Below, in pieces: positions 22,653 through 35,249 of a DNA stretch of 64,000 bases (positions are counted from its first letter, which is position 1; each line of letters opens with the position of its first letter). Below the pieces are notes generated by a model, which saw only the letters and a list, made by a program, of their open reading frames with translations, had not been told where the DNA came from and ran no database searches. The position numbers and the translations under genes were made by a program. This stretch comes from Candidatus Latescibacterota bacterium (lineage in GTDB: Bacteria > Latescibacterota > UBA2968 > UBA8231): NCBI GenBank assembly GCA_964291625.2, contig OZ220090.1, forward strand, positions 896,001 to 960,000. The letters are read 5' to 3'.

Positions 22653-25600
22653 CTACTCGCGGGAGGCCGGGATCACCTGGAGGAGCTGGCGCTGCCGCAG
22701 CTCTCCATCCTCCAGGTACACACAGACGTACAGTCCAGGAGACACCAAGCGGCCGCCGCGGTCGGTTCCATCCCAGGCGAGGGTGCGGCTCTCCGGACCT
22801 GCGGTCAGTCTCTCCACCAGCTCGCCCGCCGTGTTGAAGATCCGTATCTCGACTCTTCCCGAGCCACGGAACCAGAAGGTCGCGGGCTGCCCCCGCGAAA
22901 CCGGATTGGGATAGCTGTAGACGGCGATCTGCTCGTCGATCACCTGCGCCGTCAGGATCACGGTGCGGGTGCCCCCGTCCCCGGTCAGGCTCAGGGTCTC
23001 CTCGATCCTCTCCGACTCCCCCGACAGACCGCCGTCGATCCCCGACCGGAAGAGGATCCACACCTCCGCCGTATCCCCGGGCGCCAGGCTGAAGGACGAC
23101 AGTTCCGCGGCGAACTGCCGGGTGTCGTCGACTGTCCGGGGATCGAGATTGAGCCGTGCATCGCCGCGGTTGTGCACCGGCAGGCTCTTCCACAGGGAGT
23201 CGCCCACGGAGACGGCGCCGAAGTCCAGGGTATCGGCAAGGACTTCCAGCACGGGCGCCACTCCTGTGATCGTGAACGACACCTGGATTGTCGGCTGGTC
23301 GGGATCGCTGCTGTCTATGGTCAGGACACTCGAGTCCGGGCCGAGCCGATCGGGAGAGACACGGATCGTGATCTCGCTGGTCTCCCCGGGTTCCAGGGGC
23401 CAGGGAAAGCGGTCCTCCAGAGCCTCCATGGGCTCACCGTCCCAGAGGAATCCCTCGATGACCAGCTCTGCCTCACCCGTGTTGGCAAGGGTCAGGACCA
23501 CCGGGACGGCCTGATCTGCCCGGACCTCGCCCAGTTCCACCAGGCGCGGCTCGACTTCCAGGCGCGGCTTGATTCCCCGCCCCCTCAGCGGCACGTCGAG
23601 GAAGCTCTTGTCAGGGTCGTTGCTGGTCAGGCCCAACGATGCCTCCACAATACTGGCGTCGCGAGGACTGAAGGTGACCACCACGGTCGTATCCCTCCCC
23701 GGTTCCAGGTCGAAGGACTCGGGCGATACCTGGAATTGCTCATCCGTCGTCGCTGCGCCCACACCCAGCAGACCTGTGCCGCTGTTTTCCACGACCAGGG
23801 TCTCTTCGCCGGACTTGCTCACGGCCACTTCTCCGAAGAAGACCGTATCGGAGACGGATACCTGGATCTGCGGCTTCTGGCTGCCGGCTTTGAGATCGAC
23901 GATGATCACCGGCGCATTCGGATCGTTGGTCGTGAGCACCAGCGCCGCCTCAATCCTCGGGTAGTTGGCCGAAGGATCGAATTTCAGCTCCATGACCAGA
24001 CTGTCACCCGGACTGATGCTGACCCCGGGGCCGGGGCGCTCCACCTCGAACTCCGGTTTGGTGGTGATGAGCTGGTTGATCACCAGATCGGCCTCGCCCC
24101 GGTTGTAGAGCGTCAATTCCCTGTGGACGGGCTCGCCGGAGATGCCGAAGTCGACGCGATCGGAGGACAGACCGATCTCGGGGATCAGCTGGGACATGAC
24201 AATGCTCACGCTGTCGCTCTCGAGCCCCGGGGCGGCGACCTTCACCGTGGCGATTCCGGGCAGGGTGCCCGCGGTAAAGGAGACGCTGGCCATGCCCTCC
24301 ACCACCACGGCGCTGGACACCTCCAGGTCGCCCAGATCCTCGGGACCTTCGACAATCGAGAAGGAGATCTCCGTACTGTTGTCGGTCTTGAGCCGCCCCC
24401 CGAGGGAGTCCTGCACCACGGCGGTCAGGATCGACGTGTCCTCGCCGTTGGCCCGGATGCTCGCAGGTGAGGCGGTGAGGACGATCTTGAACCGGGTCAG
24501 GACGATACCGAAGGCCCCTCCCCCGACGGTGCCGGCGTAGACTTGCCGGGGACGAGAGAGCCCCATGGCCACGGAGAGCACATCGGGGTGGGTCAGACCC
24601 GGCTCGATGGGCTGCCAGCTGTCGCCGCCGTCCAGGCTGCGGAAGACCCCGCCGCGGGTGCCGGCGTACAGGTGTGATGAATCGGCCGGGTCCGCGACCA
24701 GGGCGCGAATCGACGAAGAGGTCAGCCCCGCGTTGATCCCCTCCCAGGTGAGGCCGTCGTCCAGGCTGCGGAAGATCCCGCCGTCGGTTCCGGCAAAGAC
24801 GGCACGGCCCGCCCCATCCAGGGCCAGGGCCCGCACCGCCAGCCCCCCCATGCCGGCGCTCGAGGGCGTCCAGGTCGAGCCCCCGTCCCCGCTGCGGTAG
24901 ACCCCCTCCCCGGTGCCGGCAAAGACAACCTGCCCCCCCGGATGCAGGGCCAGGGCCCGCACCGACAGGGCAGCCAGCCCCTGGCCGTCGGACGGCCAGC
25001 TCAATCCCCCGTCGAGGCTGCGGAAGACCCCCTTCTCCGTGCCCGCAAAGACGGTCGTCCCCGTCGCCCCCGCCGCCAGGGACTGCACGGTCAGGGTATC
25101 CAGCGCCTCGGCCGCTGACGACCAGGTCGAGCCGCCATCGAGGCTGCGGAAGACTCCGCTGCGAGTGCCGGCGAACATCCGCAGAGGCGAACCCGGGTCG
25201 ACCAGGAGCGCATGGACGTCCAGCTCGGCCTGACTGCGCGTCCAGGAAGCGCCCCCGTCGAAGCTGCGGAAGATCCCGGACTCCCCCCCCGCGTGCAGGC
25301 GCAGTGCGTCGGAAGGATCGACGGCCAGGGTGCGCACCGACATGGCTGACAGACCGGTGTTCGCCTCCTCCCACCTCGTCCCCCCGGCGAGGCGGAACAC
25401 CCCGGCCCGGGTACCCGCATACAGCCGCGAGCCGTCGAGGGAATCCAGCCACAGGGCACGCACGGGTACCGTGGGCAGGCCCTCGTCGAGAGCGGTCCAG
25501 GAAGCGCCCCCGTCGAGGCTGCGGAAGACCCCGGACCCGCCCGCCGCGTAGAGCCGCAGGTCGTCGGAGGGGTCGACGGCCAGTGCCTCGACCGCTGACA

Positions 25601-26336
25601 GCCGGGACCCCTCGCCGGCCGGCTCCCAGCTGGCGCCCCGGTCGCCGCTGCGGAAGAGGCCGGCGTCCGTGCCCGCGTACACCCATGCCAGGCCGCCGTC
25701 CACGGCCAGGACCGATACCCCGGCCCCGTCCAGCCCCTCGCCGGCGTCGCTCCACGTCTGCCCCCTGTCCTCGCTCAGGAAGACGCCGGCCTCCGTACCC
25801 GCGTACAGCCGCAGGGTATCGGCGGCCTCCACGGCCAGGGCATGCACGGGACCCGCCAGCCCCTGGCTGGGGTTGTTCCACGTCACCCCCCCGTCCGTCG
25901 TCGACAGAAAGCCGGCGTCCGTACCCGCGTACGCGCGCAGGGGGTCGCGGGGATCGATGGCCAGGGCCGCCACCGACAGAGGCTCCGACTCCTCCCCGGA
26001 GGACCACGTCGCGCCGCCGTCCAGGCTGCGGAACAACCCGGCATCGGTGCCGGCCAACAGGTAGGAGGGGCGGTCCGGGTGCACCGCGAGACTCCGCACG
26101 ACCCGGCCGGCGATGCCGGAGGCGGTCCAGGTCGCGCCCCCGTCGAGGCTGCGGAAGACCCCATCCATGGTGCCGGCATACACGACCTGCCCGTCGCCCG
26201 GCCGCGTGGCCAGGGCCTGGACCGGCCCCCCGTAGAGACCGAGCGGACTCCAGAGATTGTCGGCGCTCCAGGCCCTCGGCGCGGCTCCGAGCAGCATCAC
26301 GCCCGCCAGCAGGCTTCGCCTCCCCCGCGCCGTCAC
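22653..26336 (-). CDS. Secreted BNR/VPS10-like beta-propeller with Big_1, several ASH/choice-of-anchor D Ig domains and FlgD-type C-terminal domain
   Basis: About 14 repeats of YAGT.GGVFRSLDGG.SW. LTASPASIRANGEDTS (Big_1). DFG...N.G...L....SNDP repeats. YSYPNP...IFNTAGELVE...WDGTDRGGRLVSPGLY tail. Confidence 0.88.
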   Translation of the reverse strand: MTARGRRSLLAGVMLLGAAPRAWSADNLWSPLGLYGGPVQALATRPGDGQVVYAGTMDGVFRSLDGGATWTASGIAGRVVRSLAVHPDRPSYLLAGTDAGLFRSLDGGATWSSGEESEPLSVAALAIDPRDPLRAYAGTDAGFLSTTDGGVTWNNPSQGLAGPVHALAVEAADTLRLYAGTEAGVFLSEDRGQTWSDAGEGLDGAGVSVLAVDGGLAWVYAGTDAGLFRSGDRGASWEPAGEGSRLSAVEALAVDPSDDLRLYAAGGSGVFRSLDGGASWTALDEGLPTVPVRALWLDSLDGSRLYAGTRAGVFRLAGGTRWEEANTGLSAMSVRTLAVDPSDALRLHAGGESGIFRSFDGGASWTRSQAELDVHALLVDPGSPLRMFAGTRSGVFRSLDGGSTWSSAAEALDTLTVQSLAAGATGTTVFAGTEKGVFRSLDGGLSWPSDGQGLAALSVRALALHPGGQVVFAGTGEGVYRSGDGGSTWTPSSAGMGGLAVRALALDGAGRAVFAGTDGGIFRSLDDGLTWEGINAGLTSSSIRALVADPADSSHLYAGTRGGVFRSLDGGDSWQPIEPGLTHPDVLSVAMGLSRPRQVYAGTVGGGAFGIVLTRFKIVLTASPASIRANGEDTSILTAVVQDSLGGRLKTDNSTEISFSIVEGPEDLGDLEVSSAVVVEGMASVSFTAGTLPGIATVKVAAPGLESDSVSIVMSQLIPEIGLSSDRVDFGISGEPVHRELTLYNRGEADLVINQLITTKPEFEVERPGPGVSISPGDSLVMELKFDPSANYPRIEAALVLTTNDPNAPVIIVDLKAGSQKPQIQVSVSDTVFFGEVAVSKSGEETLVVENSGTGLLGVGAATTDEQFQVSPESFDLEPGRDTTVVVTFSPRDASIVEASLGLTSNDPDKSFLDVPLRGRGIKPRLEVEPRLVELGEVRADQAVPVVLTLANTGEAELVIEGFLWDGEPMEALEDRFPWPLEPGETSEITIRVSPDRLGPDSSVLTIDSSDPDQPTIQVSFTITGVAPVLEVLADTLDFGAVSVGDSLWKSLPVHNRGDARLNLDPRTVDDTRQFAAELSSFSLAPGDTAEVWILFRSGIDGGLSGESERIEETLSLTGDGGTRTVILTAQVIDEQIAVYSYPNPVSRGQPATFWFRGSGRVEIRIFNTAGELVERLTAGPESRTLAWDGTDRGGRLVSPGLYVCVYLEDGELRQRQLLQVIPASRE

Positions 26337-35062: not shown

Positions 35063-35118
35063 GTCGGCTTTTCCGGACAGAGCGGCCCCAAGTCGGCCGT
35101 CTGTCCGATTTTCTGGAC
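35063..35118. promoter_or_regulatory. Putative enhancer (UAS) palindromes GTCC-N8-GGAC
   Basis: GTCG-GCTTTTCC-GGAC (35063-35078) and CTGTCC-GATTTTCT-GGACAG (35101-35120), 40 bp apart. Confidence 0.65.
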
Positions 35119-35249
35119 AGCTGGAGCAGGGGACCCGCGCCGGGCCGACGCTCCGGCTTGACCGTTCCGGCGGAAACGGCCTGTATCCGGGGGATCAGCG
35201 CCGGAGACCCGAGCCGCCGGACAGGGAAGATGCTCGCCGCCAGGAAGCC

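Follow-up and report, generated by a model that had tools for sequence, protein, structure and literature searches.

The window analysed here is a stretch of 64,000 nucleotides (positions 896,001 to 960,000 of contig OZ220090.1; G000:C2:896001-960000) from a genome of the phylum Latescibacterota, which comprises 5.9 Mb in two contigs with about 70% G+C. The organism is uncultured, and near relatives of the stretch are contained in sequencing runs labelled sponge metagenome. The window carries on its minus strand five genes, G1 to G5, that may encode a signalling relay between the cell envelope and sigma-54 promoters; this operon is the subject of the present work, in which all of the evidence is in silico. 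The genes lie head to tail, with high third-position G+C and with gaps of 25, 4, −4, and −4 nt at the G1/G2, G2/G3, G3/G4, and G4/G5 junctions. An earlier note on this DNA, made from its letters alone, had proposed a tightly coupled five-gene operon for a new signalling system; the gaps confirm the coupling, and most of its domain calls hold as well. The coordinates of all features are collected in Table 1.

Conservation of the operon and its genomic setting

The five genes were expected by the earlier note to co-occur in other genomes, and they do. Their order is kept in two genomes of the same genus at about 90% identity (locus L011 in G002 and locus L012 in G006), as well as in L015, a contig of a more distant metagenome-assembled genome. 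In L015, the identity to the window amounts to 74% for G1, 72% for G2, 77% and 42% for the N-terminal and C-terminal parts of G3, 37% for G4, and 54% for G5, and the flanking genes are unrelated to those of the window. As the order is kept amid unrelated flanks, the five genes move as a unit, with the outward-facing parts diverging fastest. The system is rare: orthologues of the N-terminal domain of G2 were found in 3 of 41 relatives, counting the genome of the window, and, with a limit of E ≤ 1e-10, in 3 of the phylum's 168 genomes.

Comparison by blastn with the same-genus genome G007 (G007:C1:1361000-1390000) gives synteny of about 90% identity up to position 15567 and again from 35261. Since G007 is collinear with the window on both sides, the intervening segment is an accessory island, of which the five-gene operon makes up about half, and its presence or absence in this comparison matches the extent of the two operons with their control regions. 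The island is patchy, occurring in 3 of the 10 genomes of the genus; no tRNA was found in the window and no integrase among the island open reading frames (ORFs) scanned. Ten genes of the island were scanned with Pfam and family profiles, and none gave a match to a histidine kinase or a receiver, in agreement with the earlier claim of a system that has neither. Contigs from the RNA-library run X2, which are 95–99% alike to the window, cover parts of G1 to G5 and span the G2/G3 and G3/G4 junctions. They are not counted here as expression, because DNA may be present in such a library and a contig of two genes shows no single transcript.

Table 1. Features of the accessory island, with positions in the window
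Feature	Position	Strand	Description
G1	31886..34936	-	Signal peptide, pseudo-caspase (SGRG / IDAGYTG), PEGA, one transmembrane segment, cytoplasmic A module
G2	29830..31860	-	N-terminal AAA_35 (B module), disordered linker, complete sigma-54 activator (GAYTGA, lid, putative C-terminal helix-turn-helix)
G3	27931..29825	-	Secreted; paralogous to the ectodomain of G1, plus additional beta-sandwich repeats resembling PEGA/CarboxypepD_reg
G4	26333..27934	-	Exported; weak N-terminal PorV/PorQ-family match, uncharacterised C-terminal part of ~200 aa
G5	22653..26336	-	Large exported protein; BNR-type propeller repeats, Big_1/Invasin immunoglobulin-like (Ig) domain, four HYDIN/choice-of-anchor-D Ig domains, FlgD_ig/PorZ-C-terminus-like tail
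Accessory island	15568..35260	.	~19.7 kb, holds both operons; absent from same-genus G007, where the flanks are contiguous
P1, sigma-54 promoter-like	35005..35020	-	GGGCACGCTTGTTGCT; GGCAC-N5-TTGC, 1 mismatch to TGGCAC-N5-TTGCW; upstream of the GGAG/ATG of G1
Candidate enhancer site A of P1	35101..35120	-	CTGTCCAGAAAATCGGACAG; perfect 20-nt palindrome
Candidate enhancer site B of P1	35063..35078	-	GTCCGGAAAAGCCGAC; differs from site A by 3 mismatches and lies 40 nt downstream of it
P2, sigma-54 promoter-like	22334..22349	-	CGGCACAATTCTTGCA; ends 33 nt before the GGAG/ATG start of D1 (DUF4956 gene)
Candidate enhancer sites of P2	22437..22520	-	GTCCGGAGAATCGGAC (22505-22520), GTCCAGGAAAGCGGAA (22464-22479), CCGGAGAACCGGAC (22437-22450)
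GC-rich hairpin	22612..22640	-	GGGGAGACGC...GCGTCTCCC; directly 3' of the G5 stop
Operon 2	15778..22300	-	Five genes, DUF4956 to CotH
DUF4956 protein (D1)	21617-22300	-	
HlyD-type adaptor (MFP)	20525-21613	-	
OEP/TolC-like protein	19212-20807 (ORF)	-	
VTC-domain protein	18452-19345 (ORF)	-	
CotH kinase	15778-18474	-	With two LTD domains

The putative membrane receptor G1 and the activator G2

The ORF of G1 opens at 34990, and its start was taken as the ATG at 34936, which follows a GGAG Shine-Dalgarno sequence that L011 and L012 share. Its anatomy is essentially the one that had been proposed from the letters. The caspase fold is matched by Peptidase_C14 with 32.6 bits (cut-off 21.4) and the P-loop ATPase by AAA_22 with 31.3 bits, the cytoplasmic region matching also nSTAND6, nSTAND1, and ATPase_2; the topology consists of one signal-like hydrophobic segment and a single transmembrane segment at residues 364-385. 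Only the PEGA domain stays just under its threshold (19.9 bits, cut-off 20.8). The cytoplasmic part, which we call module A, is about 600 aa long. It opens with an alpha/beta domain, which takes up about 230 aa, and continues with an Orc1/Cdc6-like AAA+ domain, a lid, and a winged helix, with GGRRIGKT as Walker A and VFLMDE as Walker B.

The caspase fold of G1 was also predicted to be catalytically dead, and alignment to metacaspase structures and among the orthologous sequences bears this out. In all eight G1 and G3 sequences from the four genomes with the operon, the catalytic His is replaced by Arg (SGRG for SGHG) and the catalytic Cys by Gly or Ser, as IDAGYTG or IDASYSG (IDA[GS]Y[ST]G throughout) stands for D-x-C-H-x-G. 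Two more distant G1-like proteins of the same caspase-PEGA-A architecture, P0035 and P0037, have SGRG too, but retain the Cys.

The alpha/beta domain that opens module A is less easily placed. No Pfam family matched it even at E 10, the alignment of A modules has no invariant polar residue in it, and the ESM Atlas search with residues 415-650 of the homologue P0034 returned a single unnamed cluster at 0.85, which is uninformative. A restriction-endonuclease-like fold is a candidate, because of the order of helices and strands and the presence of DpnII in some relatives.

G2 combines two ATPases in one chain. Its N-terminal module, B, is an AAA_35 domain (PF14516; 48.9 bits in one scan and 51.6 in a second, cut-off 27) with Walker A GARQTGKT and Walker B VVTLDE, and it is followed by a Sigma54_activat domain (235.4 bits, cut-off 20.2) that has the GAFTGA-type sigma-54 contact loop as GAYTGA at residue 446, and by AAA_lid_14 (55.3 bits). 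The earlier description of G2 stands in these parts; its Fis-type HTH_8 is below cut-off (16.5 bits against 22), while alignments to the NorR, AtoC, and PEP_resp_reg models extend to the C-termini of these models. No transmembrane segment was found in G2, and no REC, GAF, PAS, FHA, or V4R input domain was matched, the N-terminus being occupied by AAA_35. Neither G1 nor G2 has a C-terminal TPR, WD40, or LRR repeat sensor that Pfam would recognise. The sigma factor itself is encoded in the genome, as an rpoN DNA-binding domain is matched at C1:598675 with 209 bits. The only other match of the G2 N-terminal domain in its own genome is a weak one at G000:C1:1339528-1340172 (32%, E 4.9e-5, in an ORF of 583 codons).

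The fusion of AAA_35 with a sigma-54 activator is rare among the sequences compared. It was seen in 3 of 29 relatives, all of one clade and at least 66% identical to the window protein. Among the nearest 68 cluster representatives, one has it.

The ATPase modules A and B as a pair

The AlphaFold models of modules A and B have a predicted local distance difference test (pLDDT) of 88.4 and 82.3, respectively. The fold search with the two models (m60ba550960a1 and mcb50bda1ce3b) gave Cdc6/Orc1 and archaeal ATPase_2 as best matches for both modules. Further matches of module B include Apaf-1, CED-4, Avs3, and MalT (structure 8bob), and those of module A include the NRC2 and NRC4 resistosomes. The predicted structures thus match an Orc1/Cdc6/STAND-like arrangement of nucleotide-binding domain (NBD), helical lid, and winged helix, a fold class that is common to ORC/Cdc6 and STAND proteins. 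Walker A and Walker B are kept in both modules as invariant columns of the alignments, and both ATPases look active. In BLASTP, modules A and B align with each other in the Walker A region only (E 0.005), therefore close paralogy is not established by sequence alone.

Module B belongs to a large family, with 6521 clusters at E ≤ 1e-3 and 136 of them at E ≤ 1e-30, and its C-terminal partners include TIR, CHAT, Trans_reg_C, GAF-SpoIIE, and WD40. Both modules are thus shuffled between architectures, since module A is found elsewhere joined to caspase-PEGA, CarboxypepD_reg, Ser/Thr kinase with FHA, HEAT repeats, or DpnII. The most informative cases are those in which both modules come together outside of this operon. 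In three loci, a gene with an A module (32–35% identity, E 1e-58 to 1e-68) lies immediately upstream of a gene with a B module. In L016, a protein with two FHA domains and A precedes a B-caspase protein; in L017, an A module alone precedes B-TIR; and in L026, from a Chloroflexota genome, TIR-A precedes B-caspase. The stop and start codons of the two genes overlap in L016 and L026, and the AAA_35-fused caspases of these two loci keep both SGHG and DACHAG. In addition, a local phmmer scan of 226 proteins found three with A and B in one chain: P0110 (A-B-EAD7), P0211 (A-B-caspase-HEAT-SMODS), and P0157 (B-A).

The coupling of the two ATPases that the earlier note had conjectured has therefore gained independent support, from adjacency in three distant loci and from three natural fusions. 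As the adjacency and the fusions occur in unrelated domain contexts, we think that there is good comparative evidence that modules A and B work together, evidence which bears on the partnership and leaves its manner aside.

Two of these loci have neighbours that deserve mention. Convergent to the FHA-A/B-caspase pair of L016 lies a gene for an FHA-GAF-SpoIIE phosphatase (L016:4861-6591, minus strand). Given this neighbour and the many AAA_35 relatives that carry GAF-SpoIIE, the AAA_35 family may also feed partner-switching pathways. In L026, the TIR-A/B-caspase pair is preceded, at a distance of about 1.8 kb, by a glycosyltransferase gene with a GT4-conflict match (L026:21-1148, E 5.9e-8), which recalls the association with GT4 of the nSTAND2 pairs that are discussed below.

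The exported proteins G3, G4, and G5

G3 resembles the ectodomain of G1 with 38% identity over 300 residues (E 7e-44), and it matches Peptidase_C14 (50.2 bits, cut-off 21.4) and PEGA (35 bits). By its domains it is the second exported caspase-PEGA protein that had been described; the gene extends further than described, to 27931, and it is frameshifted in the window. L011, L012, and L015 each have it as one uninterrupted gene of about 631 codons, whereas the window has TT in place of TTT at 28618-28619, which splits it into 28554-29825 and a second frame ending at 27931. One contig (X1, record 7) has 6234 letters over the 6233 of window positions 25647-31879, with one gap, whose position is not listed, and is otherwise identical. 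This contig fits a base missing from the window, and the one-nucleotide deletion may be a real frameshift or an assembly error.

The PorV-like barrel with a TPR tail that had been suggested for G4 stays below threshold in the profile searches, and its tail was not matched. The NCBIfam models PorV_fam (29–31 bits, cut-off 90) and PorV2 (35.9 bits, cut-off 325) match far under their thresholds and over only about 55–90 N-terminal model positions; UPF0164 is likewise sub-threshold, and no TPR family was matched in Pfam. The picture is more favourable for G5, in which BNR/Sortilin-type repeats, Invasin_D3/Big_1, four HYDIN/ASH Ig domains, and FlgD_ig (27.4 bits, cut-off 27) agree with the propeller/Ig protein with a FlgD-type tail that was called earlier. 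At its C-terminus, the PorZ C-terminal stretch is matched with 36 bits against a cut-off of 260, and no other model of a type IX C-terminal sorting domain is among the matches listed.

Candidate promoters, enhancer-like sites, and the neighbouring operon

The strict pattern GGCAC-N5-TTGCW has 25 matches in the 5.9-Mb genome on both strands, two of which are in the island, each just before a first gene. Upstream of both promoter-like sequences, P1 and P2, there are repeated sites of the form GTCC-N8-GGAC. The palindrome of site A at P1, CTGTCCAGAAAATCGGACAG, is the sole copy in the genome; it is kept in L012 and has one change in L011. When its 16-mer core was searched across the genome with up to three mismatches, the only match with two or fewer was the P2 site, and the 35 matches with three mismatches include two that are weaker copies at P1 and P2. 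At P2, GTCCAGGAAAGCGGAA is a weaker copy 41 nt downstream of GTCCGGAGAATCGGAC, and CCGGAGAACCGGAC is a third, partial copy. P1, P2, and the strong GTCC-N8-GGAC sites are kept in L011 and L012 despite indels in the spacers. Between both operons, the GC-rich hairpin, which is also kept in L011 and L012, is a possible terminator.

Operon 2 lies downstream of P2. CotH, a polyphosphate polymerase, and DUF4956 are presented as a conserved accessory group beside Pel polysaccharide loci in a preprint (bioRxiv 10.1101/768473), and sigma-54 has been proposed to govern the cell exterior (PMC3162934). A second copy of the DUF4956 gene, with 81% identity to D1, is present elsewhere in a same-genus genome (G006:C5:708784-709542). 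Nowhere in the window is G+C lower than in the CotH-LTD gene at the left end of the island (0.58 in the 16001-18000 bin), which hints at a foreign origin for at least that part of the island. Outside of the island, two other observations may be recorded: a second indel with respect to G007 at 10611-12664, where about 2 kb of lower G+C (0.64 in the 10001-12000 bin) are present in the window only, and two very long, overlapping ORFs with high third-position G+C on the minus strand at 50108-57612 (1777 and 1098 codons from stop to stop).

Proposed mechanism and alternatives

We think that the operon may encode a kinase-free relay from the envelope to promoters, built on a cognate pair of Orc1/Cdc6/STAND-like ATPases, and we give this reading an even chance. 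From the domains, the dead dyad, the synteny, the linkage of A with B, and the repeated sites, we infer its binding steps, the direction of control, and the signal in the following manner. G1 would be an inner-membrane receptor with a dead caspase fold and PEGA in the periplasm and module A in the cytoplasm, whereas G2 would be its partner, in which a flexible linker connects module B with a complete sigma-54 activator. A periplasmic event, in which G3 as soluble paralogue and G4-G5 as outer-membrane/surface pair probably take part, would alter G1, and modules A and B would then build a nucleotide-dependent hetero-oligomer. This assembly would gather G2 subunits so that the AAA+ ring of the activator forms on the upstream GTCC-N8-GGAC sites and opens sigma-54 promoters. 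In the genus of the window, the predicted targets are P1, the promoter of the operon itself, with positive feedback, and P2, that of the DUF4956/MFP/OEP/VTC/CotH operon of the cell exterior. Sigma-54 activators need ring assembly to work, so they could plausibly be gated by an N-terminal switch through its oligomerisation with a partner.

The A-B pairs elsewhere carry FHA, TIR, or active-caspase domains and share the fold; for this reason, the system looks like a paired-nucleoside-triphosphatase (NTPase) cassette of the conflict type that has been rewired to the output of a sigma-54 activator. A fuller version of the same idea, which we hold with some doubt as a possibility, is that the sensor/helper logic of nucleotide-binding leucine-rich-repeat (NLR) proteins has been domesticated here: the receptor ATPase would nucleate a hetero-oligomer that templates the sigma-54 activator ring, giving a kinase-free, ATP-gated relay across the envelope that serves, in a sponge symbiont, its own operon and one for the cell exterior.

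The place of G3, G4, and G5 in the relay could be read in two ways, as sensors or as outputs. In the genus of the window they stand behind P1, therefore in the position expected of outputs, and G4 and G5 could equally be that. A partnership with G1 is favoured, because the synteny is kept in L015, where no sigma-54 site is seen.

Several observations weigh against the relay as proposed, and they concern both its core and its periphery. Among 401 Chloroflexota genomes, seven have relatives of module B at nine loci, and only one of the nine is paired, the other eight being unpaired; 301 Myxococcota genomes yielded two weak matches to module A and no A-B pair. With respect to the periphery, the frameshift of G3 in this assembly and the sub-threshold PorV call of G4 have to be borne in mind. 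As to the sites, the 14-mer motif was derived from the sites themselves, and only the search with the P1 16-mer is unbiased; their conservation amounts to weak footprinting, since L011 and L012 are only about 10% diverged. In the 17.6 kb of L015 that were analysed there is no recognisable P1, no GTCC-N8-GGAC site, and no adjoining operon 2, therefore the autoregulation may be specific to the genus, or the sites may be wrong. Two sigma-54 candidates in L015 were not accepted: one, upstream of G1, merely resembles such a promoter (GG-N11-GC), and the other, TGGCGG-N5-TTGCT, falls within the likely signal-peptide region of G3.

The direction of control could also be the opposite. Membrane-anchored G1 might keep G2 inactive through the A-B contact and free it upon the signal, a sequestration that seems to us unlikely, although the linkage of A with B fits inhibition as well as activation and the present data are compatible with both directions. 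Partner proteins do control sigma-54 activators and the STAND activator MalT, as in the PspA-PspF and MalK-MalT cases, and a MalT negative-regulation complex appears at rank 15 among the fold matches of module B. Against it speak the death-type effectors, TIR and active caspase, carried by the B modules of relatives, for which the usual STAND logic is activation driven by assembly.

More unlikely still, in our opinion, is that the operon is an immune system in which G1 and G2 act as a paired-NTPase sensor of invaders with a transcriptional output, G3 to G5 and operon 2 being induced envelope defences or passengers. Such a role would suit the company kept by the relatives (TIR, active caspase, EAD7, and SMODS, and in one case an adjoining GT4-conflict glycosyltransferase) and the patchiness of the island within the genus and, at 3 of 168 genomes, within the phylum; moreover, PADLOC lists RtcR, a sigma-54 activator with a CARF sensor. 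Yet no system of PADLOC 2.0 was matched, and only generic caspase, RtcR-type activator, and P-loop-level PDC matches were obtained. In G1, the input domains lie outside the cytoplasm and are catalytically dead, the five genes with their surface proteins stay together in the different genomic context of L015, and neither an integrase nor a tRNA is present at the borders of the island.

The absence of any relay, with G3 to G5 and the G1 ectodomain forming a surface or peptidoglycan structure that resembles the type IX attachment complex and G2 being merely its sigma-54 regulator, whose own ATPase answers a cytoplasmic ligand, is improbable: the genome does encode SprA and 14 PorV-family matches, G4 and G5 do match PorV/PorQ and the PorZ C-terminus weakly, and PEGA is treated as peptidoglycan-associating in PMC7159879, but this would leave unexplained the 600-aa cytoplasmic ATPase module of G1 and the adjacency and fusion of A-module relatives with AAA_35 modules.

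Relation to described systems

The closest likeness of the proposed relay is to the nSTAND2 pairs. These were described as a two-gene operon of paired STAND NTPases, with a predicted toroidal hetero-multimer and a counter-invader role; one partner is inactive, with eroded NTP motifs, and is fused to GT4 or HEPN (Kaur, Iyer, Burroughs, Aravind 2021, PMC8195603). G1 and G2, as well as the pairs of L016, L017, and L026, share with them the adjacency of the genes and a STAND-type NTPase core with variable fused domains, and P0049 unites an nSTAND2 domain with an A module. They differ from them in that G1 and G2 have no match to PF20702 and the Walker motifs are intact in both; in addition, a sigma-54 activator takes the place of GT4 or HEPN as output, and one partner is a membrane receptor with an exported pseudo-caspase. 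The statement of the earlier note that no system of this layout is described is thus too strong for the paired-NTPase core (PMC8195603); neither the sigma-54 output nor the extracytoplasmic pseudo-caspase input was found in our literature searches. These gave no account of an AAA_35-sigma-54 activator fusion, of such an ATPase joined to an exported pseudo-caspase-PEGA receptor, or of their pairing, with the proviso that the supplements of two papers (PMC7159879 and PMC8195603) may list such architectures. Searches on AAA_35 and PF14516 found nothing relevant.

Other likenesses are of a more general kind. The fate of module B recalls MalT, in which a P-loop switch of NBD, lid, and winged helix governs a DNA-binding transcription factor by oligomerisation. 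MalT, however, works with sigma-70 through a LuxR-type helix-turn-helix and has its own C-terminal repeats as sensor, whereas module B shares its chain with a second AAA+ motor, the sigma-54 activator, and would have its partner ATPase in a separate membrane protein. The activator half of G2, with its Sigma54_activat core and putative Fis-type helix-turn-helix under a control without receiver, is comparable to PspF with PspA, NifA with NifL, and the CARF-controlled RtcR, but none of the inputs of these systems is known to be a full ATPase. Plant sensor/helper NLR pairs offer the same division of labour, one STAND protein with a variable sensor and a partner with the output; the sequence relation to them is limited to the fold class, and the output here would be transcription.

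As regards the envelope, FecA-FecR-FecI and PorU-PorV-PorQ-PorZ likewise bring together a barrel in the outer membrane, a protein at the surface, a component of the periplasm, and a transducer in the inner membrane. A further likeness of the operon to the type IX attachment complex may lie in the clan-CD-like fold, the putative PorV/Q-like barrel, and the propeller protein, which may end in a domain of the sorting type. Unlike in these systems, there is no TonB box, anti-sigma factor, or extracytoplasmic-function (ECF) sigma factor in the operon, the PorV and PorZ matches are sub-threshold, and the caspase folds are of C14 type and inactive.

Perspectives

If the proposed relay is correct, a full P-loop switch ATPase would join the short list of inputs of sigma-54 activators, and it would follow that a paired-NTPase cassette, which is wired elsewhere to the death effectors TIR and caspase, can be rewired to transcription. 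The relay would also offer a compact case, open to testing, in which a signal crosses the envelope with neither a phosphorelay nor an anti-sigma factor. Its predicted parts, namely two promoters, shared enhancer sites, and two ATPase modules with intact Walker motifs, are directly testable in a heterologous sigma-54 reporter. We think that the system, if true, would bear on how surface functions are regulated in the uncultured Latescibacterota symbionts associated with sponges.

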